Below are positions 1 to 10,491 of a DNA stretch of 10,491 bases, piece after piece. Numbering within the stretch: the first letter of the stretch is position 1; each line of letters starts with the position of its first letter. The position numbers were made by a program, and so were the translations under genes. Source of the stretch: a virus (taxonomy: Duplodnaviria; Heunggongvirae; Uroviricota; Caudoviricetes); the IMG/VR virus record IMGVR_UViG_2690316028_000010; one strand, 5' to 3'. The notes under the pieces are model-generated. The model saw only the letters and a program-made list of their open reading frames with translations, had not been told where the DNA came from and made no database searches.

Positions 1-780
1 TTATGGCCTTGTATTTCCTTTTCTTAACTTCTTTTCGCTCTTTTTTACAAGCTTAATTAACCACTCTGGCTCATCCGACAGTTCGGAGTAATAGCAGTAT
101 TCTGGTATTGCTTTCCAAAATGTTGTTATTGCATCAGCAAATTCAACAAACTGTTCTTCTGTTACATGCAGATCATCATGAGTAGGATTGATATGTCTGC
201 CGCATATACCAGTAGGATGAGGGTAATATTCTGGATGAGTTGATGATAGGAGGCGGTGAGAATTTCCATCACCATGTTTGTACACATTTACGACTAATGC
301 GCACGCTTTGAGCTTATCGCCATAATCAGTTTCATCTATCTTGAGACCGATCCACTCGAGCAGTTTCAACAGTTGATCAAAATTTAAATCCCAAACCATT
401 GGTGTAATGATCTCTTTATCACACCAATGAGACAATTCTCTGATCGTTTTTTCTCGTAACTTTTTATCGAACTGGTGATACATACCCGCAGTTACTGCCA
501 AAAGAACAGTTTCTTGCATTTCAATAAGTGACCAGACGTAGTTTACACCCTCCTCATATGCTTGCTCATAGGCTGCCATTGGGTCGTCAAAATCAGGATT
601 GAAATGCTCAGCGGTATACTCCAGAAACTGTTTCTCTCGCTCCTCCGCCTCTTGGGTCAGATCCCCAAACTGAGACAAAAGTCTCCGTCTTGCTTCCGAA
701 ACATAAAATTCGTGAGGTTCAAGAAAATAGGGCCGATCTACTTTAGCAAGCCAAAATGTCACGAAGTTATCTGATGACAT
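1..780 (-). CDS. hypothetical protein, 259 aa (AT-rich accessory gene, family not recognised)
   Basis: Complete ORF on the complement with ATG at 780-778 and TAA at 3-1. An AAGGA Shine-Dalgarno-like motif (complement of 787-791) lies 6 nt upstream. The composition looks like a real soluble protein, and the antisense ORF 562-774 looks like a shadow. No domain recognised by eye. Confidence 0.75.
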   Translation of the reverse strand: MSSDNFVTFWLAKVDRPYFLEPHEFYVSEARRRLLSQFGDLTQEAEEREKQFLEYTAEHFNPDFDDPMAAYEQAYEEGVNYVWSLIEMQETVLLAVTAGMYHQFDKKLREKTIRELSHWCDKEIITPMVWDLNFDQLLKLLEWIGLKIDETDYGDKLKACALVVNVYKHGDGNSHRLLSSTHPEYYPHPTGICGRHINPTHDDLHVTEEQFVEFADAITTFWKAIPEYCYYSELSDEPEWLIKLVKKSEKKLRKGNTRP

Positions 781-798
781 AACTTATCCTTGATAATT

Positions 799-819
799 AT
801 TGTATGGATAGATTATCCA
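799..819 (-). promoter_or_regulatory. candidate -10 element plus adjacent 6-3-6 palindrome (possible operator) upstream of the 259-aa ORF
   Basis: On the complement strand, TACAAT (complement of 799-804) is a 5/6 match to TATAAT and would give a short leader to the ATG at 780. Immediately upstream is the palindrome TGGATA-GAT-TATCCA (805-819). TTATCC recurs at 784-789. I found no convincing -35. Confidence 0.3.
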
Positions 820-924
820 GAAATTTGCGAACTGAGTCGGTCATTTTTTTTTGTGTGCGCGTGATGTAATAAAGGTTCAGGAATATACTGTCAGTTTACT
901 GAAAAACTGGCAACAGAGGCGGTT

Positions 925-1152
925 ATGAGCGAGAGTTACGAGTTCTCAGCAGGTTGTTTTTTGAAGCTATCAATATCTTCAGGGTATTTCACTATCAAAA
1001 TTCAGGGAGATCTCCCCGCTCGTGCAGCTAGTGCCATCTTGGCAGATGATGTCGAGCAGGTTTTATCTCAACTAGACAAATGTTTTCAGCTGAGTAATAG
1101 GCAACGAGAAGGGATCGTTAAGTATCTTATGTCGAAGGGGATGCAGCCTTGA
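925..1152 (+). CDS. hypothetical small protein, 75 aa
   Basis: ATG at 925 is preceded by AGAGG (915-919) with a 5-nt spacer. The TGA at 1150-1152 overlaps the ATG of the next ORF (TGATG), implying translational coupling. No family recognised. Confidence 0.6.
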   Translation: MSESYEFSAGCFLKLSISSGYFTIKIQGDLPARAASAILADDVEQVLSQLDKCFQLSNRQREGIVKYLMSKGMQP

Positions 1153-1610
1153 TGACTTGGATCACCCAAACAGATAACTGGACAGGGATCGCGGCGTGGG
1201 CGGGTTTTGCTTTGTCCGTATTTCAATTACTAAAATCCAGAACATCGCTAAGGCTTTATCTCGGATGTGATCAGCACGAGGACAGGATATACGTTTCGAA
1301 CATAAGCGCACACGATGTAACGTTGAGTGCAGCCGGTGTGGTAACAGCCAGTGGACGCCTTAGAATGTTATCCGACGAATATTCGGACGAGAACATGATC
1401 ACACCGATGCTGCCAAAAAGATTGAAAGCACGAGACGAAATGGTCTTGAACGTGCCATTCATAAATAAGGCTCATCACAACAAAGTGCATCATCGTGGCG
1501 GGGTTTATATCAAAACATCTGACGGCAAGATGTTCAGTGATGTTTGTTGGATCAAACGCCAATGGTGGTGGTTACTGTCTGTAATACTACGAGACACAAA
1601 GCGATACTAA
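1152..1610 (+). CDS. hypothetical membrane-anchored protein, 152 aa
   Basis: I prefer the ATG at 1152 to the TTG at 1149 used in the ORF track. AAGGGGA (1135-1141) lies about 10 nt upstream. There is an N-terminal hydrophobic helix (WTGIAAWAGFALSVFQLL) and a Trp-rich hydrophobic C-terminus (RQWWWLLSVIL). The antisense ORFs 1271-1462 and 1368-1562 look like shadows. Confidence 0.65.
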   Translation: MTWITQTDNWTGIAAWAGFALSVFQLLKSRTSLRLYLGCDQHEDRIYVSNISAHDVTLSAAGVVTASGRLRMLSDEYSDENMITPMLPKRLKARDEMVLNVPFINKAHHNKVHHRGGVYIKTSDGKMFSDVCWIKRQWWWLLSVILRDTKRY

Positions 1611-1690
1611 GTTGATTGATAGTCCGAGGTGATGTTCTGCCCAGCGTAGTTGCTGGGTGATACACCTTCAATGATTCTTGTTAGTGTGTA

Positions 1691-1699
1691 GGGGGGGGG
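1691..1699 (+). repeat. G9 homopolymer directly upstream of ATG 1701
   Basis: Nine consecutive G (1691-1699), then C1700, then ATG at 1701. It is the longest G/C homopolymer I saw in the window. Confidence 0.95.
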
Positions 1700-1700
1700 C

Positions 1701-1919
1701 ATGTTGGATTTTAAAGCTGAGTTTGTTGGCGGCAGCCATAGCGGCGAGGTTATATCACCGATGTCCGAGGTAGAACTTAATAAACTAGGGTATAGAGTCC
1801 ATTTACGTGGTGCCCCCTCTGGCGATGAAATGCCTGTACACGTTGTTGTACCTATTGAATGGTCAGCGGATGAAGCACACAGAGCCATAATGCAGCGCTG
1901 GGGTAAACGCAGACGGTAG
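1701..1919 (+). CDS. hypothetical small protein, 72 aa
   Basis: ATG-initiated ORF with balanced composition. The G-run immediately upstream could serve as an SD-like element. The competing antisense ORF 1607-1930 is Ser/Pro/Thr-rich and looks non-coding. No family recognised. Confidence 0.45.
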   Translation: MLDFKAEFVGGSHSGEVISPMSEVELNKLGYRVHLRGAPSGDEMPVHVVVPIEWSADEAHRAIMQRWGKRRR

Positions 1920-2301
1920 ATGTCGCGCATTTCTCTTAAACTGGCTGCTGTGTTTGGTGCTAATTATCCATGCAAAGTGGCCTAAGCTACGTGGAAGAAT
2001 GATCAGTTTCGCATTATTTGGTTCAAGGAGGGCTCCCCCACAGCCTCACTCTCTGAATGCAAAACAGCCCCACAATCCCACTGTTAAAAGTCCCAGCTTG
2101 AAAATTGCACGCTTATGGTTGCCCCTCCCTCAACTCTATAGCTCGCCCGCGCCCCCGTGTGCATGTGCGTGCCCGCGCGTCAGGGGTCGCTGAGAAACCC
2201 TAAGATTTTGCTCATCCGAGACAAGCATTACCTGCACCTGTAAAACGCGAAATTACCTCTCAAACACCACACATAAACCCACTTTGCATTGAGATCTGAC
2301 A

Positions 2302-2649
2302 ATGACCTTACTGACACCTGAAAACGTGGCAGCGGCTAGGGCTGCCCGTAGCGCGAGGATTGAACACTGGAAAGCCAACGCCAGCCAGCTTAAGCAGGAC
2401 TTTGCTGACGAAGCGCACTGGCGGCGGCTCGCCTCACGCTTCGGCGTGCGTATGCCCTCGGCGTATGTTCCCGGCTCCGAGCTGCGATTGCTGCGCCGGG
2501 CGGCCAAACGCGCGGGCATCTCTGGTGCTGATATGCGCGATGCTTTTGGTGGGGGCGTTGCGCACCTGCACGAGCTTAATCCCCATTGGCCTGCCTTCGC
2601 GCTTATCGGCCTGATTCTTGAGATCGCGGCTGAAAAAGCTGCTGCCTGA
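2302..2649 (+). CDS. hypothetical Ala/Arg-rich protein, 115 aa, upstream of the capsid gene
   Basis: ATG-initiated ORF on the same strand as, and 68 nt upstream of, the capsid gene. It is helical-looking with a hydrophobic C-terminal segment (WPAFALIGLILEIAA). The SD is weak. Other ORFs overlap it in this GC-rich stretch (2360-2614 +, 2434-2679 -), so the frame choice is not certain. Confidence 0.55.
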   Translation: MTLLTPENVAAARAARSARIEHWKANASQLKQDFADEAHWRRLASRFGVRMPSAYVPGSELRLLRRAAKRAGISGADMRDAFGGGVAHLHELNPHWPAFALIGLILEIAAEKAAA

Positions 2650-2717
2650 TTCATCCCATTCTCTTTTCCCCTTTTCCATAAATCGCGCTGGCTAACGCTG
2701 GCGCGGGAGCTATTTCT

Positions 2718-3713
2718 ATGACTGACAATGTTTATACCCCTGACCAATTCCGCCCGCACTGGGGCGGTGTAGATGCTGACAACGACATTCACATTGAAGC
2801 GTATGACCGGGACGTTCAGACCCGCCTTGAGGCAAAGAGCGTGTTTCTCGCCGAGGGGCTGAGCACATACAAGCCGCTGAAAAACAGTAATCAGTATCGT
2901 GTAGACCGCCTGAGCGGAGATCTGGAGGTGAAGGGCAGAACCGCAGGGCAATCGCTGGAGCCTACCGCCGTTAAGTCGGACAAGCTGATTATCTCTGTGG
3001 ATACGCTGAGCTATATCCGCATCCCGATTGACTATCAAGACGACTGGACAGCGCCCACCTTTCGCGCAGAGCTGAGCCGCAACATGGGGACAGCCCATGC
3101 AAAGTTCTACGACGAAGCGCACACTATCCAGCTAATCAAAGCGACTGACTTTGTACCGCCGCCTACGTTGCAACCAACGTTTAACCCGCTGACGGATAAT
3201 GTTGTCTCGCTCGACCTGACAACGGGGAGCGAAGAGGATGCGGCTAACGAACTGGTTCACGCTATTAAAGCTGCTGTTAATCGATTCCTAACTGAAAAAG
3301 ATATTCCGGTGGCGGAGCTGTGCCTTCTCATCGACCCAGCTTGGTTCAGCATCCTGATGGAACATAAGAAGTTGATGAACGTCCGTTACAGCCGGGATAG
3401 TGGCAATGATTACGCATGGCGTCGCGTTGGCTATGTCGCTGGGGTGCGAGTTATTGAGCTGAACAGTTACCCGCAGGAAGCCATTACCGCGCATGAACTG
3501 GGCGCTGATTATGATGTGACCGCAGGGGAAGCGCTGACACGGGCGACGCTGTTCCGGCCTGCGTCTGTACTTGTGACAGTCGAAGCGCAGAGCGTTATCA
3601 ATCGCCAGTGGGATGATGAACGCGAAATGACAATGGTGATGGACTCATATCGCCTGTTCAATGTTGGGCTGCGCCGCCCTGACTGCGTTATAAATTTCCG
3701 ACAAGCTGCATAA
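2718..3713 (+). CDS. major capsid protein, HK97 fold, T7 gp10-like family, 331 aa
   Basis: GGGAG (2705-2709) lies 8 nt upstream of the ATG. Its length is close to T7 gp10A (345 aa as I recall). By-eye collinear similarity to gp10A as I recall it: DKLIISVDTLSYIRIPIDYQDDW..RAELSRNMGTAHAKFYDEA vs EKVITIDGLLTADVLIYDIEDAM..RSEYTSQLGESLAMAADGA; LCLLIDPAWFSIL vs VFYCDPDSYSAIL; GVRVIELNSYP vs GFEVVEVPHL; C-terminal GLRRPDCVINF vs GGLRPEAAGAVVF. Confidence 0.88.
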   Translation: MTDNVYTPDQFRPHWGGVDADNDIHIEAYDRDVQTRLEAKSVFLAEGLSTYKPLKNSNQYRVDRLSGDLEVKGRTAGQSLEPTAVKSDKLIISVDTLSYIRIPIDYQDDWTAPTFRAELSRNMGTAHAKFYDEAHTIQLIKATDFVPPPTLQPTFNPLTDNVVSLDLTTGSEEDAANELVHAIKAAVNRFLTEKDIPVAELCLLIDPAWFSILMEHKKLMNVRYSRDSGNDYAWRRVGYVAGVRVIELNSYPQEAITAHELGADYDVTAGEALTRATLFRPASVLVTVEAQSVINRQWDDEREMTMVMDSYRLFNVGLRRPDCVINFRQAA

Positions 3714-3729
3714 CAAAAGGGGCCGAGCC

Positions 3730-4161
3730 ATGAATATTGATGCTTATGCCCCGGAGCTGTTGCGCTCTTTGTTTCGGTACGATGCGAAGACTGGCCGCCT
3801 GTTCCATGCAGTAGACCGGATCGGAGCCAACAAGCGGATTTACGCTAAAGCCGGGGAACTGGCCGACACGGTAACGGACAGCGCCGGATATAGGCGCGTA
3901 TCTGTCCGCATCAATGGCAAATCTCATGCGCTATACGCCCACCGTGTCGCCTTCATCATTGCTAATGACGGTATCCCTGCCGGGATGCAAATCGACCATA
4001 TCAACGCGGTACGCGATGACAACCGCCTTATCAATCTCCGCACGGTTACGCCACAAGAGAACCAGCACAATTACCGCAAAGCCAAGGGTTATAGCCACCA
4101 TGCCTGCTCTGGCAGATGGGAGGCTTACATTCGCGTTGGTGATCCACCGCGCGATAAATAA
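3730..4161 (+). CDS. HNH homing endonuclease (HNH_3 type) with a truncated AP2-like C-terminal stub, 143 aa
   Basis: AAGGGG (3717-3722) lies 7 nt upstream of the ATG. It has the classic motif AHRVAFIIANDGIPAGMQIDHINAVRDDNRLINLRTVTPQENQHN (His-Asn-Asn metal finger). The C-terminus GYSHHACSGRWEAYIRVG resembles the first strands of the AP2 DNA-binding domain found in HNH-AP2 phage endonucleases, but the ORF stops 8 residues later. Confidence 0.9.
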   Translation: MNIDAYAPELLRSLFRYDAKTGRLFHAVDRIGANKRIYAKAGELADTVTDSAGYRRVSVRINGKSHALYAHRVAFIIANDGIPAGMQIDHINAVRDDNRLINLRTVTPQENQHNYRKAKGYSHHACSGRWEAYIRVGDPPRDK

Positions 4162-4200
4162 GCCGCAATCCGTGAGATAAATGGACACGGTGCGGCTTTT
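4162..4200. terminator. bidirectional intrinsic terminator between convergent HNH and tape-measure genes
   Basis: The left arm GCCGCAATCCGTG (4162-4174) pairs with the right arm CACGGTGCGGC (4186-4196), with a small internal mismatch. It is followed by TTTT (4197-4200) on the plus strand and preceded by A-rich sequence, which provides the U-run for the minus-strand transcript. It sits exactly between the two stop codons (4161 and 4228). Confidence 0.7.
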
Positions 4201-4227
4201 CAGATACTGCAAAGGAATTACAGATTA

Positions 4228-6711
4228 TCAGTCGTAAGCAACCCGGCGCTTACGGGCAAGGATAGCTTCCAGTGCTCTTTCAATCTCAGGAATGGACAGC
4301 TTAAGCGCATTGGCCACATCCGGTGCTGGTGACTTGTTCTTGCCATCAATATAGATATTGTTAATGACGTTAATCCCGCCGCCTGCGCCTGCTGGTGAAT
4401 GAGAGTCCCGGCCTCTGGGTAAGGTAAGGTCGCCGCGCATATAGCGCTCTAATACGGGGGGTACTTTCGGCACATCCGGCACCATCATATCAGCCAGCCG
4501 CGAGGAGGCTTTCAGCGCCAGTGATGCAGACTGACCAATGCCAATCGCCGCCCCTTCTGCGATATTAGACCCGAAGCCCATAAATACACGGCTTGGCGAG
4601 TGAATCCCCAGCTTTTCCTTGAACCAGCCGCCGACACTGTCACCCATCTCAGTGACGGTATTCTTGAGAGACTCCCACTTGTTTTTGATACCGTTCACCA
4701 GTCCATCAATCAAGTGACCACCAAACTCAGTAAACTGGCCGGGAAGGTCGATGTTAAACCACTTCATGACCCCCGCAAACGCCTTGTAGAACAGCCCCAG
4801 CGGCGACCAGTTCAGGATTAGCTTACTGACACCAAGAACCCCGCCGTTAAAGGCTGTTTTCACTTCCTCCCACCGCTGCGAGAACCATCGGCTTATCGCG
4901 CCCCAGTTGCGGTAAATCAGGTACGCGCCCCCGGCGATGATGGTTATCGCAATGCCTATGGGGTTCATTAACAGCGCCCTGCCAAACCAGAGGAAAGCCT
5001 TTGCCACCACCATTACGCCTCTGAACAGTCCACCCGCCAGCGCTTTACCCAGCATTCCGGCTCCCTTCGCCACGGTACTGAATCCGGTAGCCAGCCAGCG
5101 CAGCTTTCCGCCGTCGCTCAGGGCGGTTTTGAGCAACAGCCAGTTAGTGCGCAGCAGTACGGCGTTTTTCCACAACCCGGCGAACGGTGATACCAGCAGA
5201 TTCAGGCCGAGTTTCAGCCCGACAGTGGCGATTTTCAGCCCCAGCAGTACGCCCACGGTTTTTGCCACACCCTGAACAATGCCGGGATGTTGCGCTATCC
5301 ATTGCCCGGTGGAATGAATCAGCGGAATCAGTTGCTGCGTCATTGACACGAACGAGGGAGACAGTTGACTGCCAAGGGTAATGGACAGTTCGCGGGTGCT
5401 GACCATCAGTGCTTTGGTCGCCTCCAGCGGCGATTTCAGTCGCTCCGTGTAGGAGGAGGCCAGCAGGTCTTTATCCGCCGCCTTAAGTGCGCCAGCCCTG
5501 ATTTCGCGGTATTTGTCCATGTTGGCGAGCATCGGACGGACAAACGCCATGACCTGCATATCGGCGAACATCTCACCCAGACCGAAATTCTTTGCCAGTT
5601 CCTGTAACGCAAGGTCGCGGGAGTTATCGTCCTTGATTTTCATTGCTTTCTTGAAGCCTGCCAGTGCTTCCGGGCTTTTGGCCTCCAGATACCTGCCCAT
5701 GACGCTTATCATGCCCTCAATGGGCGAGACGCCAGCAGATTTATAAGCCATGAGTGACCCCTGAAGGTCAATCCCGATATCGGCAAACTGTTTCTGCGTG
5801 TCGCGGGCAAAAATCTTGGTGAGGAAGTTACGGAAGTTGTTACCAGCCTCGTCAGATGACCCGGCACCAATTCGGGCAATCTGTAAACTCGCTCCGATTT
5901 CCGCCATCGCTTCTTTACCTTCGGCAATACCGCGCATCATCGGGGCAAGAGATGGCATCCATTTCACCTGGTCAGGTATTTCAAAAGACCCTTGGTCGCC
6001 TGCAAAGGCCATGATGTTCTGTACTTTGGCAAACTCTTTAGCGCTGCCATCCATCGAGTTTTTCCAGACGGCGGCAACCTTCGCCCATTCCGTCCCTGTG
6101 GTGCGTGTGGCAGTAGCGGCGCGGGCTATATTGGGCATGAAGCTGCCAATTTCGGACACACTGTCGATATTGTCACTGATAAGCGAGCCTACGGCGTCCT
6201 GTAAGTCGCTCTGGTACTGGTTGTACTTGAGCGACCATCCCCGGATTTGCTGCCCCAGACTGGCGCGGGTTTTATCGTCATATTTCGCCGTGATCGACAT
6301 ATCAATCATCTTGTCGTCGAACGTAGCCGACTGCTGAATCGCCGGGGAAACGAGGCTGTAAGCGGCTTTGGCCTGCGCCCACGTCTCAATTCCCTGTCCA
6401 TAAAGCGCCATCCGGTTAGCTCTCAGGGCATCGGTTGTGGCAGACGCTGCCGACAGGCGGGACTGCTGGCGGTTTAGTTGCTCCAGCGTTCTGCCTACCC
6501 GTTGCAGGTCATTGTTCAGGCGTGAGGCCACGCCTGAACCTACCTGACCGTAACGCTGCATGGCGCGTGACAGGCTGCTTTGTTGCTCGGTCAGGCGGCG
6601 TGACGTGTCGCCGAGAGAATCAAGCGCCCGCCGTGTGCCGCTGACGGCGGAACGGAAGCTGCTCCCGACAATACCGCCAATCATCACACCAACAGAAAAA
6701 TTATTGCTCAT
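4228..6711 (-). CDS. phage tail tape measure protein, 827 aa
   Basis: GGAG (complement of 6718-6721) lies 6 nt upstream of the ATG. The N-terminal region is coiled-coil. A central region resembles the TP901-family tape-measure core (..ASLQIARIGAGSSDEAGNNFRNFLTKI..). A block of Gly/Ala/Leu-rich hydrophobic helices follows (GVLLGLKIATVGLKLGLNLL, IGIAITIIAGGAYLIY), then the conserved GIHSPSRVF motif. All plus-strand ORFs inside it are low-complexity shadows. Confidence 0.93.
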   Translation of the reverse strand: MSNNFSVGVMIGGIVGSSFRSAVSGTRRALDSLGDTSRRLTEQQSSLSRAMQRYGQVGSGVASRLNNDLQRVGRTLEQLNRQQSRLSAASATTDALRANRMALYGQGIETWAQAKAAYSLVSPAIQQSATFDDKMIDMSITAKYDDKTRASLGQQIRGWSLKYNQYQSDLQDAVGSLISDNIDSVSEIGSFMPNIARAATATRTTGTEWAKVAAVWKNSMDGSAKEFAKVQNIMAFAGDQGSFEIPDQVKWMPSLAPMMRGIAEGKEAMAEIGASLQIARIGAGSSDEAGNNFRNFLTKIFARDTQKQFADIGIDLQGSLMAYKSAGVSPIEGMISVMGRYLEAKSPEALAGFKKAMKIKDDNSRDLALQELAKNFGLGEMFADMQVMAFVRPMLANMDKYREIRAGALKAADKDLLASSYTERLKSPLEATKALMVSTRELSITLGSQLSPSFVSMTQQLIPLIHSTGQWIAQHPGIVQGVAKTVGVLLGLKIATVGLKLGLNLLVSPFAGLWKNAVLLRTNWLLLKTALSDGGKLRWLATGFSTVAKGAGMLGKALAGGLFRGVMVVAKAFLWFGRALLMNPIGIAITIIAGGAYLIYRNWGAISRWFSQRWEEVKTAFNGGVLGVSKLILNWSPLGLFYKAFAGVMKWFNIDLPGQFTEFGGHLIDGLVNGIKNKWESLKNTVTEMGDSVGGWFKEKLGIHSPSRVFMGFGSNIAEGAAIGIGQSASLALKASSRLADMMVPDVPKVPPVLERYMRGDLTLPRGRDSHSPAGAGGGINVINNIYIDGKNKSPAPDVANALKLSIPEIERALEAILARKRRVAYD

Positions 6712-6742
6712 GGTTCACTCCGGTTGAGTGGTTCGGTGGGCG

Positions 6743-7336
6743 TCATTCAGTCAGGGACAGGCCGCTGATTCCGGTAATCCCGGCAATTTCTTCGCTGACG
6801 GCTGCCAGTTCACTTTCAAGCCCGGTGCGTTCGCTGACCAGTGCCGCCACGGTCTTACGGCGCTCTGCCAGTGAGGGAAGTTTGTCATTACCCCACGTCA
6901 CGCTCTTATCCTTCTTAAGCGCTTCGGTCAGTCGGGTGGCGACCACATCCGGGAAGAAAAAGCAGAGCTTGCGCATTACCGCCATCCCGGTATCAGCCGG
7001 GGGGACGTTTCCTCCCAGCCCCACCAGACGGAACAGACCGGAAATATCGCCGTTCTCATTTTCCAGATTGCCCCAGCGTTCGGCGTTCCCTTCACCGCCG
7101 GAACCGTTGCAAAGAGCACGCTTGAATGACTGATATTCTTCCTGCCCGAATCGCTCAATATATTCAGGAATAAAGGAACAGTAATCATTAAGTGATAACG
7201 GCATATCCTGTAATGCGGTTATTTCGCCATTAATATCACCAATGCGACGAGAGAGCTTTTCTTTCTGCTCATTCAGGGAGGTAAGGTTATTTTTAACGGC
7301 GTTCAGTGCTTCAATGAGGGAAATAACAGGTTTCAT
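6743..7336 (-). CDS. hypothetical coiled-coil protein, 197 aa (between the gpO-like gene and the tape measure gene)
   Basis: GGAG (complement of 7345-7348) lies 8 nt upstream of the ATG. The start is coupled to the upstream stop by TAAAATG. Heptad-like N- and C-terminal segments (LTSLNEQKEKLSRRIGDINGEITALQ; GLESELAAVSEEIAGI) flank a Gly-rich middle. No family recognised. Confidence 0.8.
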   Translation of the reverse strand: MKPVISLIEALNAVKNNLTSLNEQKEKLSRRIGDINGEITALQDMPLSLNDYCSFIPEYIERFGQEEYQSFKRALCNGSGGEGNAERWGNLENENGDISGLFRLVGLGGNVPPADTGMAVMRKLCFFFPDVVATRLTEALKKDKSVTWGNDKLPSLAERRKTVAALVSERTGLESELAAVSEEIAGITGISGLSLTE

Positions 7337-7337
7337 T

Positions 7338-7952
7338 TTAATAACTCCAGATAAAAGGTGTAGTGAGGGTGAGCGCTTCGGAATAGGAGACGTTGCAGGC
7401 TTCGCTTACATCCTTTATTAAAAGGTGCTGCGCTGCCCTCTGGCTGTCGGCTATGCCGTCGAGCTCTGAGAAATAAACGTGTGATTCATTGTGACCAAAA
7501 CAAACCGGGTAAGCGCTTTCCATAAACTCCACCTGCTCAAGCCCCTTTACGGCTGGCGGCTGTGCGCCGAGAAAACCAATATGGCGAAGATACCAGGCAC
7601 CAGTTCCGGCCGGGTTACGCGCTTCTCCCGGCCTGTAGAAAGCGGCAGACACTTTTTTATATAGACCTGACTGAACCATATCCAGCAACCTGTTATCAGG
7701 CTTAACCAGCGCGAAAAGTCTGCCGTTTTTACTTATCAGTCCGGTGGTTTCACCATAGGCGGGACTGTTACTGGCCGGATGCCCCAGGCACAGCGGCGCA
7801 CCATAACCCGCGCGATGATAGCCGTTATAGGCTGCTGCCATGTTGTCGATATCCTCGTCGGAAAAGCTGATTTCCTGCCCCGCCATCGCGGTATGTGTTC
7901 CCGCCCGGAATATCTCAATAGTTTTCCAGTTACCAATATTGATATCTGTCAT
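7338..7952 (-). CDS. P2 gpO / Mu gpI-like prohead protease (capsid scaffolding protein N-terminal domain) homolog, 204 aa
   Basis: By-eye collinear similarity to P2 gpO as I recall it: GQEISFSDEDIDNMAAAY vs GRVISAQDIQEMAETF; YGAPLCLGH vs YGCRINLEH; LFALVKPDNRLLDMVQSGLYKKVSAAF vs LFAKITPTDDLIAMNKAAQKVYTSMEI; PPAVKGLEQVEF vs DPASLGTEYLEF. The start is coupled to the upstream gene by TAAAATG. Confidence 0.82.
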   Translation of the reverse strand: MTDINIGNWKTIEIFRAGTHTAMAGQEISFSDEDIDNMAAAYNGYHRAGYGAPLCLGHPASNSPAYGETTGLISKNGRLFALVKPDNRLLDMVQSGLYKKVSAAFYRPGEARNPAGTGAWYLRHIGFLGAQPPAVKGLEQVEFMESAYPVCFGHNESHVYFSELDGIADSQRAAQHLLIKDVSEACNVSYSEALTLTTPFIWSY

Positions 7953-7953
7953 T

Positions 7954-8481
7954 TTATATTTGTCCCTGTTTCATATCGCGGCACTCTTTGTTTTTCTTAC
8001 GCTCGGCGGCAATAATCTGATAAATCCACTGAATAGAATTGCCATATTTCCTGGCTAATTCCCGATGAGTCATCCCTTGTTTGTAATCGGAAAATATCCT
8101 GGCATTTCTGTCGAAAGAGTTTCTGGCTGCGCCATTAGGTATATAGAAATTGTTACCTTTAAAGACCCTTCTAAGGTGTTCTGTAATTTCCGGGGAAATG
8201 ATTTCGGCCTGAGCCGAAAAGCAATGTATTGTAAGCAAAGCCTGCGCTATCACACCTGTAAGCTCATGCAGAAAAGATGTTGCTTTAGGGGCGTCTTCAC
8301 ATTCTATTGGCATGTAATTCTGGCAACCACCAAGATTATCAGATATATGCAAAACAATTTTATTTGCTGCACTACTTGCCTGAAGTTGTGAATAGCCCGC
8401 ATCAGTCAGAAAATCTTCAATCGCATCCCCCATTTCCCCCAGAGTGTCAGATGTTGCGTACAATCCCTCTCTTGTAATCAT
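7954..8481 (-). CDS. Mor/C-family transcriptional activator (Mu Mor-like), 175 aa
   Basis: I prefer the ATG at 8481 (GAGGT, complement of 8488-8492, 6 nt upstream) to the GTG at 8487 in the track. The C-terminal half matches Mu Mor as I recall it: GNNFYIPNGAARNSFDRNARIFSDYKQGMTHRELARKYGNSIQWIYQIIAAERK vs GGQVYIPRGQALDSLIRDLRIWNDFNGRNVSELTTRYGVTFNTVYKAIRRMRR (HTH region). Confidence 0.85.
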   Translation of the reverse strand: MITREGLYATSDTLGEMGDAIEDFLTDAGYSQLQASSAANKIVLHISDNLGGCQNYMPIECEDAPKATSFLHELTGVIAQALLTIHCFSAQAEIISPEITEHLRRVFKGNNFYIPNGAARNSFDRNARIFSDYKQGMTHRELARKYGNSIQWIYQIIAAERKKNKECRDMKQGQI

Positions 8482-8681
8482 AATCACACCTCGGTAATGA
8501 TAAAGATGTGCGCTAAAAAGGCTTTATAAAGCTTTATGAGGCGTCTTTCTGGTGACAAATCAGCACATACACCATTAACGCTTTAAAATGGCTTACAGGC
8601 TTTTTTAGCGCGGGTTACTAATGTGGATTAAGAATATGGTTTTGGGGCGGGGATGTTTTTTAATGTACTTTAGATATGAAG

Positions 8682-8703
8682 AAGCCCCTCAGAGGAGGGG
8701 CTT
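8682..8703 (-). terminator. GC-rich hairpin downstream of the 96-aa gene (candidate terminator)
   Basis: AAGCCCCTC (8682-8690), loop AGAG, GAGGGGCTT (8695-8703): a perfect 9-bp stem beginning 17 nt after the stop at 8720. The trailing sequence on the minus strand (CTTCATATCT) is only a partial U-run, so intrinsic termination is uncertain. Confidence 0.5.
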
Positions 8704-8719
8704 GCGGGATTACGCCAGA

Positions 8720-9010
8720 TTATTGAGGTCGTCTGTCTTTCCTCAATCCATCAAGTAGCGCCATGGCATCAGTAACCAGTATGCCAGCAGCATCCGTAAC
8801 CATCGAAACATCAGAGGATGCACATGATTTATCCATACCTAATGTTGACGCAAAATCAAGTAGCTTACGAACTGCGTCAAGTCGATAGGTGGCAGAGTCG
8901 TAAATTAACTCCTGATTAGCATCAGTCTTTAAAAACATAATATCATCAGAGGCACCTTGCGAAAATGACGGCATCGCACGGAAAGTATTTTGAGTTTCAG
9001 CCTGTTTCAT
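8720..9010 (-). CDS. hypothetical protein, 96 aa
   Basis: Strong GGAGGA (complement of 9018-9023) lies 7 nt upstream of the ATG. There is a 4-nt ATGA overlap with the stop of the upstream 245-aa gene. No family confidently recognised. Confidence 0.75.
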   Translation of the reverse strand: MKQAETQNTFRAMPSFSQGASDDIMFLKTDANQELIYDSATYRLDAVRKLLDFASTLGMDKSCASSDVSMVTDAAGILVTDAMALLDGLRKDRRPQ

Positions 9011-9744
9011 TGTGCAGTCCTCCGGCTAATAGCGAATTTATTATAAACTTCATAACTGGCAGCATTCAGTCCGGGGTTGTATTTATCAGCCAGAGCACAG
9101 GCAATCATATGTTCAATAAATTTTGTTATTGCGTTAAGTTCAGTTTCGTTTGAATAACGCAATGCCACTTTGAGTAACTCGCGGCAATATTGTTTTTTAT
9201 TCCCTTCGATTTGGCCTGATTTTTTTATTCCTGCCTTTTTATCTGATTCATCCTCAACAGGCAAAGATGGGATATCCTCTTTATTGGTTAGCGTTCTTTC
9301 GCAAATAATATCTTCACCAGATTGAATTACGCGCTGCAACTCTCTGGCGCTCATACGAAGAATATCATCAAGCGTGTGGTCGTTATATGCCCCACCACTG
9401 GCAAGGAGATCCAGTGTCACTTCATCCAGCCGGGCAAGCAGGTTTAACTTCGTTTTGCCGATACTTGTTTTGGCAATTGCGGCTCGGGGGGTATTGGTTA
9501 CGCCAAATATCAGAGCAACCCGCATAGCATTATGGGCTTCACGTTTATTAATTCCCCCCACTGAAAGCGCCTTTGCAAATTCCTCATTTGTTTTTGTTGC
9601 TTCCTTAAGTGCCAGCATCTCTTTACCACGATGCACTAAAGTTTCAGTCGGGGTTGGCAAAAGGAGTACAGCATCTAAAATTTTTTCCCGAAGTACATCA
9701 ACTTGGCTTGCGATGCATGAACGGTTAGACTTGTTGATACCCAT
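9007..9744 (-). CDS. hypothetical protein, 245 aa, possible HTH-type DNA-binding or regulatory protein
   Basis: I prefer the ATG at 9744 (GAGGA, complement of 9753-9757, 8 nt upstream) to the track start at 9765. The segment FAKALSVGGINKREAHNAMRVALIF..IGKTKLNLLARL resembles HTH-like segments of phage/plasmid DNA-binding proteins, but this is only a pattern impression. It is the first gene of the leftward operon at the divergent control region. Confidence 0.8.
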   Translation of the reverse strand: MGINKSNRSCIASQVDVLREKILDAVLLLPTPTETLVHRGKEMLALKEATKTNEEFAKALSVGGINKREAHNAMRVALIFGVTNTPRAAIAKTSIGKTKLNLLARLDEVTLDLLASGGAYNDHTLDDILRMSARELQRVIQSGEDIICERTLTNKEDIPSLPVEDESDKKAGIKKSGQIEGNKKQYCRELLKVALRYSNETELNAITKFIEHMIACALADKYNPGLNAASYEVYNKFAISRRTAQ

Positions 9745-9774
9745 GATTGTTATCCTCAATAACAATGGTGGTCA

Positions 9775-9809
9775 GGCAGGATGTGATACTGAACCTATCA
9801 TGTCCTGCC
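9775..9809. promoter_or_regulatory. imperfect inverted repeat in the leader of the leftward operon
   Basis: GGCAGGATGTGATA (9775-9788) and TATCATGTCCTGCC (9796-9809) are complementary at 12 of 14 positions and separated by 7 nt. This could be an operator or a 5'-UTR RNA hairpin. Confidence 0.4.
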
Positions 9810-9831
9810 GCTTGCGGTTTTACATCTACTT

Positions 9832-9859
9832 AATGTAATGTACGTACCATTGATTTCAA
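9832..9859 (-). promoter_or_regulatory. candidate sigma70 promoter for the leftward 245-aa/96-aa operon
   Basis: On the complement strand: TTGAAA (complement of 9854-9859), a 16-nt spacer, then TACATT (complement of 9832-9837). The spacer contains the left arm of the 12-bp inverted repeat. Confidence 0.4.
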
Positions 9860-9877
9860 TCTAAACAATGGTACGTA
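9841..9877. promoter_or_regulatory. perfect 12-bp inverted repeat (operator candidate) in the divergent control region
   Basis: TACGTACCATTG (9841-9852) and CAATGGTACGTA (9866-9877) are exact reverse complements separated by 13 nt. The right arm abuts the RHH start codon and the left arm lies in the leftward promoter spacer. A third copy of the half-site, AACAATGGT, occurs at 9761-9769 (compare 9864-9872). Confidence 0.6.
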
Positions 9878-9879
9878 TC

Positions 9880-10071
9880 ATGTCAAGAGTAAAAGATAAC
9901 ACGCCTAAAAATTCCGCAGGGCGTTCCCCGACCTTCCAAATACGTATTACACCTGAACTTAGGGAACAGCTTGATAAAGAAGCTCTTAAAGATGGTGTAA
10001 GTTTGGCCAATTGGCTCAAAGGCATTGCACGAGATGAACTACGCAGGAGAGGTATTTCTCCAAAAGGGTAG
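9880..10071 (+). CDS. ribbon-helix-helix (Arc/CopG-like) DNA-binding protein, 63 aa
   Basis: FQIRITPELREQLDKEALKDGVSLANWLKGIARDEL has the canonical beta-strand/helix/helix RHH pattern. The start could be ATG 9880 or in-frame ATG 9868, and neither has a clear SD. It is divergent from the leftward operon, the typical position of a repressor. Confidence 0.82.
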   Translation: MSRVKDNTPKNSAGRSPTFQIRITPELREQLDKEALKDGVSLANWLKGIARDELRRRGISPKG

Positions 10072-10086
10072 GGCTAATCAGGTACA

Positions 10087-10110
10087 AAAAGCGAAAACGT
10101 TTTCGCTTTT
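10087..10110 (+). terminator. perfect 24-bp palindrome after the RHH gene (possible intrinsic terminator; first unit of the palindrome array)
   Basis: AAAAGCGAAAAC|GTTTTCGCTTTT begins 16 nt after the RHH stop. As RNA it would form a GCGAAA/UUUCGC stem extended by A-U pairs and ending in UUUU. Confidence 0.45.
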
Positions 10111-10476
10111 ATGGCTAAGAGAGCGGATGCACTCATTAAAGCGGACAGCGCTGTCCGCCTCCAATCAGCAAAAAAACAAGATGGTTCCTCCAAAACGCTC
10201 AACGTTGAGCGTTACGTTATTCCGACAAAAGCGCAGGCGCTTGCGCTTTTGAAAGGGATCAACACGGCTTTCAAACCGGACAACGTTGACCGCTTTAAGG
10301 AATCACTGTCGGCTGAGCAAAAACGGCAAGCGCTTGCCGTTTTAGATTCGCGGGGCGGTAAACGTTTACCGTTCTGTGTCAATTATGTTCAAAAGCGAAA
10401 GCGCTTTCGCATTTTCTCACCTAAAGCGGCAAACCTCCTCTGTCTTAGCTGGAAAAACGACATCGCTGTCGTTTTT
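10087..10476. repeat. array of nine dyad-symmetric (palindromic) elements with A-run/T-run flanks
   Basis: P1 10087-10110 (24 bp, perfect). P2 10141-10158 (18 bp, perfect). P3 10194-10213 (20 bp, perfect). P4 10227-10250 (11/12 pairs). P5 10273-10296 (10/12 pairs). P6 10320-10343 (24 bp, perfect). P7 10356-10371 (16 bp, perfect). P8 10395-10410 (16 bp, perfect, plus flanks). P9 10453-10476 (10-bp arms, 4-nt centre). All read directly from the sequence. Confidence 0.9.
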
Positions 10477-10491
10477 AATCCGAGGTTCTAA
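10111..10491 (+). CDS. questionable ORF, 126 aa, overlapping the palindrome array
   Basis: ATG-to-TAA ORF with no SD; the 12 nt upstream are the right arm of palindrome P1. A second plus-strand frame (10025-10252) is open over the same DNA, consistent with stop-poor composition rather than coding. Eight of the nine palindromes lie inside it, in inconsistent codon phase. Confidence 0.3.
   Translation: MAKRADALIKADSAVRLQSAKKQDGSSKTLNVERYVIPTKAQALALLKGINTAFKPDNVDRFKESLSAEQKRQALAVLDSRGGKRLPFCVNYVQKRKRFRIFSPKAANLLCLSWKNDIAVVFNPRF

Follow-up and report, generated by a model that had tools for sequence, protein, structure and literature searches.

In bacteriophage lambda, the origin of replication lies inside the gene of its binding protein, O, and lambdoid phages carry type-specific pairs of O and ori. 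ParB-parS and KorB-OB are systems of helix-turn-helix proteins acting on palindromes of 13-16 bp, in which parS often lies inside parB (spo0J) and multiple OB sites occur on plasmid RK2. In the transposable phages Mu and D108, the transposition enhancer (the internal activation sequence, IAS, in the operator region) is recognised by the type-specific N-terminal domain of transposase and repressor. Here, we compare with these systems a locus at the end of a 10,491-nt stretch of viral DNA (Caudoviricetes; IMG/VR record IMGVR_UViG_2690316028_000010), referred to below as the window. At this locus an open reading frame (ORF) of 126 aa, called as a hypothetical protein (10111-10491, plus strand, ATG start), is laid over a series of palindromes (dyads). 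We conclude that the ORF is very probably an annotation artefact, a by-product of a non-coding dyad array and not a functional gene. The array belongs to a small mobile element and, judged by sequence comparison, is probably a multi-specificity collection of sites, a candidate landing pad or decoy for the gp10 protein of helper phages. The dyad array is of greater interest than the question of coding status with which the analysis began.

Coding status of the 126-aa ORF

The window terminates inside the dyad array, precisely at the stop codon of the 126-aa ORF, whose final base is the last base of the window. A sequence-only reading of this DNA had described the ORF as starting directly after a palindrome without a Shine-Dalgarno sequence, as being occupied by eight dyads over about half of its length, and as overlapping another open plus-strand frame in its first third. 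Each of these descriptions was confirmed. The first palindrome, P1, ends at 10110 and abuts the ATG at 10111; the 12 nt upstream of the ATG (TTTTCGCTTTT) contain no purine-rich Shine-Dalgarno sequence; the eight internal dyads cover ~180 of 381 nt (47%); and the second frame is a 75-aa ORF with a TTG start at 10025-10252 on the plus strand.

The same reading had expected an open frame from base composition, which was borne out in part. The composition of 10072-10491 favours open frames, though not strongly, and only 2 stops occur in plus-strand frame 2 of the ORF region. However, a frame this long is atypical: among 1000 dinucleotide-preserving shuffles of this 420-nt region, used as the control for both dyad counts and open-frame lengths, only 4.6% contained an open stretch of at least 126 codons. 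The GC content at third codon positions, 0.50 in the ORF and 0.29-0.65 in neighbouring genes, does not discriminate.

Two alternatives had been left standing by the sequence-only reading, namely an artefact over structured DNA or a gene constrained by its internal dyads as lambda O is by ori, together with a way to decide between them: whether indels in homologous DNA keep the frame or the palindromes, and whether codon positions show selection. This comparison, once run, gave the non-coding outcome. The same DNA is present in Escherichia coli chromosomes, with 98% identity to the window region in AW1.7, the CX strains and MS 115-1, and 77% identity in strains of the ST131 type such as ZH063. 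In AW1.7, the CX strains (CX21 among them) and MS 115-1, codon 79 has changed from TCG to TAG, and a nonsense codon was found in all eight complete E. coli genomes with a close version of the ORF. The NCBI Prokaryotic Genome Annotation Pipeline (PGAP) calls just 79 aa at the ORF position in AW1.7-type genomes (98% identity), and has no annotation there in ZH063 or in a Citrobacter plasmid. The ATG reads AAA in ZH063 and in locus L046, and is also lost in L035. Relative to the ORF, ZH063 carries frame-breaking indels of +1, -2, -1, +23 and +1, and further arrays in Erwinia tracheiphila, Intestinirhabdus and a metagenome-assembled contig carry indels of -1, -24 to -30, -49 and +7. The frame is conserved in no relative below ~98% identity.

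Substitutions within the ORF were distributed evenly over the three codon positions in three comparisons (20/21/23, 20/22/23 and 24/24/20), whereas neighbouring genes in the same genome pairs showed a clear third-position bias (16/15/58, 9/11/48 and 38/33/85). Because homologous DNA breaks the frame and loses the start while keeping the palindromes, we judge the 126-aa ORF to be non-coding. With frame-breaking indels, loss of the ATG, retained palindromes and no third-position bias, the artefact alternative of the sequence-only reading is favoured. The other alternative, a gene constrained by internal dyads like lambda O/ori, does not apply to this ORF but holds for gp10 of the related phages, as described below.

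The contrary view is that the ORF is a real gene whose product consists of repeats of a dyad-encoded peptide, K-x-x-A/S-L/V-x-x-L/F, constrained at two levels as in lambda O. Besides the unusual length of the frame, this view can point to 81 contigs that carry identical, intact copies of the ORF, to several annotations that call it, and to the fourth dyad, P4, which reads TKAQALALLKG in the ORF frame, resembling PKAQALALLG of phage KP12 gp10. Set against this, and in addition to the unconserved frame, the nonsense codons, the missing Shine-Dalgarno sequence and the lack of codon-position bias, the dyad centres are spread over the three codon phases (2,2,1,2,1,0,0,2), so that the product would not be a repeat protein in register. 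Moreover, the array does not end with the ORF: in AW1.7 it runs ~200 bp, or five more units, beyond the stop codon. Among 5.8 billion proteins, the 126-aa product had 8 matches, consisting of copies at 98-100%, truncated 79-aa forms at 90-95% and one partial match at 48%, and it belongs to no Pfam or PHROG family. We regard a real gene at this position as very unlikely.

Design and conservation of the dyads

Nine zero-loop dyads, P1-P9, the first nine units of the array, lie within 10087-10476, P1 before the ORF and eight inside it. With a threshold of 8 or more matched pairs and no more than 1 mismatch, 8 dyads were observed in 10072-10491, compared to a mean of 0.09 and a maximum of 2 in the shuffles; the remaining 10 kb of the window hold 7 such zero-loop dyads. 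The units follow the design YCAAAA-N7-C/G-N7-TTTTGR (the slash marks the dyad centre), in which an A-run is followed by a 7-bp core that varies, by a central C/G that does not, and by the mirror image. Arrays contain 8-14 different perfect dyads of 16-32 bp each, at an irregular spacing of 32-62 bp, and ten arrays together yielded 56 distinct units, some 15-18 types. No direct-repeat family was found within the array.

All nine dyads are strand-neutral. P1 (10087-10110; AAAAGCGAAAACGTTTTCGCTTTT, i.e., AAAAGCGAAAAC/GTTTTCGCTTTT) is 24 nt long, 100% complementary, and located just past the stop codon of a gene for a ribbon-helix-helix (RHH) protein. P2 (10139-10160; AAGCGGACAGC/GCTGTCCGCCT) has a core that is invariant across all arrays examined, with 9 of 12 pairs never varying. 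It is followed by P3 (10191-10216, with a perfect core at 10194-10213; AAAACGCTCAAC/GTTGAGCGTTAC) and P4 (10226-10251; CAAAAGCGCAGGC/GCTTGCGCTTTTG). P5 (10273-10296; AAACCGGACAAC/GTTGACCGCTTT) is imperfect; its GGAC/GACC asymmetry is kept in all arrays, and pair 223/232 is unpaired in 7 of 7 sequences. P6 (10320-10343; AAAACGGCAAGC/GCTTGCCGTTTT) is 100% complementary, and P7 (10356-10371; CGGTAAAC/GTTTACCG) is the next unit. The centre of P8 (10391-10414; AAAAGCGAAAGC/GCTTTCGCATTT) forms a compensatory series across relatives, AGCGCT to AACGCT to AACGTT, and that of P9 (10453-10476; AAAAACGACATC/GCTGTCGTTTTT) reads ATCGCT in the window, AACGTT in AW1.7 and AGCGCT in ZH063.

Several measures show that the dyads are conserved as dyads. 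Differences between relatives affected 5.6-8.9% of dyad positions versus 25-28% of spacer positions, so that dyads change 3-5 times slower. In an alignment of seven sequences, 88% of dyad cells were complementary, versus 32-41% when the partners were slid, and 14 pairs had changed on both sides, compared to 6.4 ± 1.7 in shuffles (0 of 500 shuffles reached 14). Of 107 units, 75 had AGCGCT or AACGTT as their central hexamer, and complementarity at the ±2 positions was seen in 96 of 104. A given unit can have one version of the centre in one lineage and the other version in another, and there are intermediates with a single mismatch. Hence, the dyads are under purifying and compensatory selection, and the would-be loop positions are under selection for symmetry. 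At the level of whole units, P2, P4 and P5 are present in every array and P2-P3-P4-P5 follow one another in this order in E. coli, Erwinia and Intestinirhabdus alike, while the unit content of close relatives differs by gain or loss of entire units.

Selection for symmetry at the would-be loop positions is better explained by a duplex site for a symmetric dimer than by a hairpin of RNA or single-stranded DNA. The possibility that the palindromes act as such hairpins, be it as bidirectional intrinsic terminators, as a structured non-coding RNA or as single-strand initiation or recombination signals, has some appeal: each unit has the A-run, GC-rich stem and T-run of a bidirectional terminator, P1 directly follows the stop codon of the RHH gene, and stem pairing would also yield compensatory changes. 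However, terminators and RNA hairpins have an unpaired loop of at least 3 nt and a stem of free sequence, and neither was found here. Complementarity runs through the centre, where the positions of a 4-nt loop (±2) switch from A:T to G:C symmetrically; the one asymmetric unit retains its imperfection throughout the arrays and in the phages; related dyads in phages lie inside essential-looking coding sequence, where a terminator would do harm; and their sequence, beyond mere pairing, co-varies with a helix-turn-helix segment (see below). An Rfam search of the array region returned no family at any useful score, and a promoter and terminator scan flagged few units as terminator-like and was uninformative. 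We therefore consider hairpins improbable. The 'structured DNA' of the sequence-only reading is thus probably better understood as duplex dyads for a binding protein than as hairpins.

Two other identities for the units were tried and set aside. MuA-type end-binding sites ('CGAAAA') were rejected since the ends of the carrier element have a different box, GAGATAAAT. Mimicry of host LacI/GalR-family operators (central A-R-CG-Y-T, resembling PurR, RbsR and cre boxes) was dropped after exact matches to dyads in phage gp10 genes had been found.

Dyads and the predicted DNA-binding proteins of the gp10 family

Phages PhiKM, KP12 and BcepMu each contain exactly one long zero-loop palindrome of the array design. 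It lies in the early gene between a Ner/IclR-like regulator and the transposase, which corresponds to BcepMu gp10 (Pfam DUF3102), and gp10 is a homologue of the protein p252 encoded beside the array. We analyzed 80 viral contigs encoding a gp10-like protein (57-100% identity) and found one perfect dyad at the same gp10 codons in 75 of them. The dyads are located at ~1846-1876 in each of L095-L174, and at 28403-28430 in L085, 27917-27948 in L086 and 7035-7064 in L087. The phage dyad is hypervariable in its 7-bp core yet always symmetric, and occurred as 19 distinct 24-mers. A gp10-like gene was found in 634 of 5426 complete E. coli genomes (~12%).

Five array units are identical to phage dyads over 24 of 24 positions, and three of the five are P1, P4 and P6 of the window. 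P6 is the commonest phage gp10 dyad (11 viral contigs), P1 equals the gp10 dyad of 4 viral contigs, and the P4 24-mer equals that of a viral contig and is 1 base from the KP12 dyad, the one that encodes PKAQALALLG. P3 is 2 mismatches from a phage type, AAAACGCTCAAC/GTTGAGCGTTTT, found in 9 viral contigs; P9 is likewise 2 mismatches from a phage type; and the asymmetry of P5 recurs in the phage type CGGACAGC/GCTGACCG. Overall, 39% of distinct array units were within 2 mismatches of a phage dyad, versus 3.3% of controls with permuted cores. The prophage of genome SaT040 has a dyad two symmetric mismatches from a unit that is carried only by the satellite lineage of SaT040 and by L046. The likeness is restricted to the dyads and does not extend to the flanking gp10 coding sequence; a DNA search of the array region against a phage collection gave no match, and against a plasmid collection a single one, the same element in an IncF plasmid.

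These observations also bear on the idea that the array is functionless debris, made of scars of satellite recombination with the gp10 genes of successive helpers. Gains and losses of whole units between close relatives would fit such an origin, as would the existence of family members without an array. But scars would hardly change 3-5 times slower than their spacers, undergo double changes that restore symmetry, or keep the P2-P3-P4-P5 order over such distances, and the flanking gp10 sequence is not shared. Debris thus seems a highly unlikely explanation.

The type of the dyad co-varies with gp10 itself. Over gp10 residues 81-130, identity was 0.90-0.97 between proteins with the same dyad type and 0.47-0.63 between those with different types (a difference of 0.31-0.47). 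The co-variation was weak elsewhere in gp10 and absent from the Ner/IclR-like regulator and the first 480 transposase residues (difference at most 0.10). The co-varying block consists of the predicted helix-turn-helix segment and the dyad immediately 3' of it. Every dyad class has its own class of recognition helix, with at least ten specificity classes in total: core GCGCA goes with SKRTAQVMMQAS, CGGCA with AERTARLVMQAA and GTGCC with YRTSVRMMQAS, and helix class APQVARRMMQAS is predicted to pair with core CGCTC. The ±2 base pair, on the other hand, flips symmetrically from A:T to G:C with the helix unchanged. From this pattern we infer that gp10 probably binds the dyad in its own gene. By the same comparisons, phage gp10 is a real gene under double constraint, with a predicted cis site inside its coding sequence.

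The element's own gp10 homologue, p252 (9007-9744, minus strand, 245 aa from the likely start), was modelled with a DNA-binding helix-turn-helix fold of the ParB/KorB type, and the structures closest to the model were the DNA-binding domains of ParB, Spo0J and KorB. The dyad has been lost from the coding sequence of p252, where an 8-nt remnant, GCAATTGC, persists within 9440-9490 (codons for TPRAAIAKTSIGKTKL), and the peptide at the codons of the phage dyad is conserved, not hypervariable. Several allelic types were found for the N-terminal helix-turn-helix region of p252.

An array bound solely by the satellite's own p252 or RHH protein, as a centromere-like, operator or silencing cluster, with the phage likeness due to common descent, is another reading to be weighed. 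The location of the p252 gene beside the array, its predicted fold, the multiple dyads used by KorB- and ParB-type systems and the presence of P2, P4 and P5 in every array speak for it. One protein would, however, not need ~15 different, individually conserved cores; these cores correspond to specificity classes found in different phages, with five exact matches; the p252 helix-turn-helix alleles vary among satellites that share array units; and satellites without an array still have p252. We regard this reading as unlikely, if slightly less so than hairpins.

The comparison with the known systems can now be made. As in lambda O/ori, the Bcepmuvirus-like phage site lies inside the gene of its predicted binder, and site and DNA-binding segment diversify together; this arrangement was found for phage gp10 and not for the 126-aa ORF of the window. 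Unlike lambda O/ori, phage gp10 has one perfect dyad and not four iterons plus an AT-rich tract, the predicted fold of p252 and gp10 is ParB/KorB-like, and Bcepmuvirus-like phages replicate by transposition. The ParB and KorB systems share with the present one the structural neighbours of p252, palindromic sites with a central CG, a site within the own gene and sites in arrays. In contrast to them, only DUF3102 was detected in gp10 and p252, with no ParBc (ParB/Srx CTPase) domain, and no ParA-like partner gene was found in the element or adjoining gp10. Moreover, where ParB and KorB sites are copies of one consensus, each array unit has a different core matching a different phage.

Like the Mu/D108 enhancer, the gp10 dyad is a cis element that lies internally, within the early region of a transposable phage genome, and is specific to the phage type; an enhancer role for it may be put forward as speculation by analogy. 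By the Mu/D108 example, a mini element would need such a site in cis for efficient mobilisation by a helper transposase. In contrast to Mu/D108, Bcepmuvirus phages have a Tn552/rve-type transposase, whose N-terminus shows no co-variation with the dyad. Finally, the array resembles a CRISPR array in that each unit corresponds to a different phage type, but its units are variable palindromes, with no constant repeats, no cas genes and irregular spacing.

The carrier element and the proposed role of the array

The array sits in an element of ~7.7 kb that occupies 4140-10491 of the window and continues beyond it (L001 12001-19812). Its left end, of Bcepmuvirus type, lies at 4140-4200 (strand-neutral; TGATCCACCGCGCGATAAATAAG...GTGAGATAAATGG), and the similarity of the window to AW1.7 and to a Citrobacter IncF plasmid begins exactly at 4140, extending rightwards only. 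The right boundary is common to AW1.7, CX21 and the Citrobacter plasmid, and the right end (TGATTAGACATGAGATAAATACAGGG...GTGAGATAATTATGGGA) is almost identical to the Mor-proximal end of PhiKM. The ends have the form TG...CA, with two GAGATAAAT-type boxes per end in the layout of the BcepMu ends. Target duplications are 6 bp long (AGTGAA, ATTGCA), and five or more independent insertion sites were found: within ynbC, next to sbmC, between serW and infA, the leading region of an IncF plasmid, and other sites in Enterobacter. The genes on one strand encode, in order, a tape-measure protein, two products of 197 aa and 204 aa (the latter similar to the N-terminal part of a Mu-type head protease), Mor, a 96-aa product and p252. 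The other strand has the RHH gene, then the array, ~700 bp that carry no annotation and finally a Gp27-family (TerS-like) gene. No transposase, rve or integrase gene is present between the ends. Escherichia phage PhiKM (Bcepmuvirus, Mu-like transposable) has a tape-measure protein 71% identical to the one of the element, whose other proteins share 33-46% identity with their PhiKM counterparts.

With helper-like ends, target duplications, several insertion sites and no transposase of its own, the element looks like a presumptive non-autonomous satellite of transposable phages that would be moved by the helper transposase. A satellite and a Bcepmuvirus-type prophage reside together in the genome of SaT040, an E. 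coli strain of the ST131 type. Like P4-like satellites, phage-inducible chromosomal islands (PICI), capsid-forming PICI (cfPICI) and PICI-like elements (PLE), it is small, combines helper-derived regulators with morphogenesis genes (Mor, protease-like, tape-measure and Gp27/TerS-like) and has no full virion set, and relatives of its RHH gene occur in P4-like satellites. Unlike all of these, it is without an integrase and has helper-like transposon ends, 6-bp duplications and scattered insertions. No description of a satellite of transposable (Mu-like) phages was found in the searchable literature, and literature searches on palindrome arrays and on DUF3102 returned nothing relevant.

The RHH (HicB/Arc-like) gene (9880-10071, plus strand, 63 aa) is the first gene of the rightward unit that enters the array. 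Homologues and PGAP place its start at the ATG at 9880, the mechanical ORF start being 9868, and its substitutions show third-position bias. The array downstream of the RHH gene takes the position of the regulator-gp10 pair in the phage early operon; homology of the RHH protein to the first early protein of the phage was considered and rejected. An operator-like inverted repeat (9841-9877, strand-neutral; TACGTACCATTGATT / AAACAATGGTACGTA; 93% complementary) occupies part of the divergent promoter region, overlapping the RHH gene start, and is unrelated in sequence to the array dyads. RHH relatives are widespread in P4-like satellites of Enterobacterales (with integrase, Psu and a primase-sized ORF) that have no dyad array, e.g., L005 from Pantoea stewartii and most of L005-L083. 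The 80 loci with RHH relatives were mostly such satellites or other array-free contexts, the useful ones being L004, L035 and L046.

Two further observations concern the surroundings of the array. In the gap between array and Gp27-family gene, outside the window, a perfect 34-bp inverted repeat (L001 18629-18662 and 18881-18914) flanks 218 bp with a terminator-like hairpin; this structure could be a miniature inverted-repeat transposable element (MITE) or an invertible segment. On the other side, window positions 1-4140 are unrelated to the element and encode a major head protein (2718-3713), an HNH endonuclease (3730-4161) and other ORFs. They match scattered E. coli islands annotated with capsid and HNH genes, and no sequenced phage, and may be part of a capsid-forming island beside which the element inserted.

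In the proposed mechanism, helper-phage gp10 would bind as a symmetric dimer to the single dyad in its own gene, recognition helix and dyad having presumably evolved in step to give ten or more specificity classes. The satellite array would gather the cognate sites of many gp10 classes side by side, so that the gp10 of any helper variant could find a cognate unit on the satellite. As candidate consequences, the bound array might serve as a 'self' mark for helper-driven transposition or packaging, allow the satellite to sense a helper, or titrate gp10. The element, being without its own transposase, would be moved by that of the helper phage.

A number of points weigh against this model. Binding by gp10, mobilisation by helpers and the function of the array are all deduced from sequence. 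Several array units, including P2 and P7, had no counterpart among the 80 viral contigs sampled. Dyad and helix are only 30-90 nt apart, and linkage in a hypervariable recombination cassette could partly explain their co-variation, although the block that co-varies reaches ~35 codons in the 5' direction and ~10 in the 3' direction, an asymmetry that argues against pure linkage. The persistence of the intact ORF on the 81 contigs leaves room, as far as sequence goes, for lineage-specific translation. Finally, the array is not essential to the element family. The members L090, L092 and L094 (Yersinia, Salmonella and Pectobacterium) have neither the array nor the Gp27 gene, and in the position of the array they carry a gp10-like gene (MARTKS..., 310-318 aa; L090 6729-7661, L092 6445-7395, L094 6706-7662), which in L092 holds a different internal dyad, AACTCCAAACCGTTTGGAGTT.

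With these points included, we still consider the multi-specificity array the probable reading. More tentatively, and with slightly less than even confidence, we suggest that it comprises two linked novelties: a hypervariable phage 'self-recognition' module, made up of a ParB/KorB-like early protein and its embedded cognate dyad, and a satellite array that catalogues the specificities of such modules as an adaptor or decoy. In genome annotations, a repeat or binding-site feature should take the place of the hypothetical protein that is called on many contigs from enterobacteria. For the DUF3102 family, so far uncharacterised, the data provide a predicted DNA target and what may be a readable helix-to-base specificity code over about ten classes. 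If the model is true, the satellite would be recognisable by almost any helper variant, or would be a sponge for the gp10 of almost any helper. It would point to a class of phage satellites that relies on the transposition machinery of the helper instead of an integrase, and to a strategy of phage parasites in which the recognition sites of many helper variants are collected side by side.

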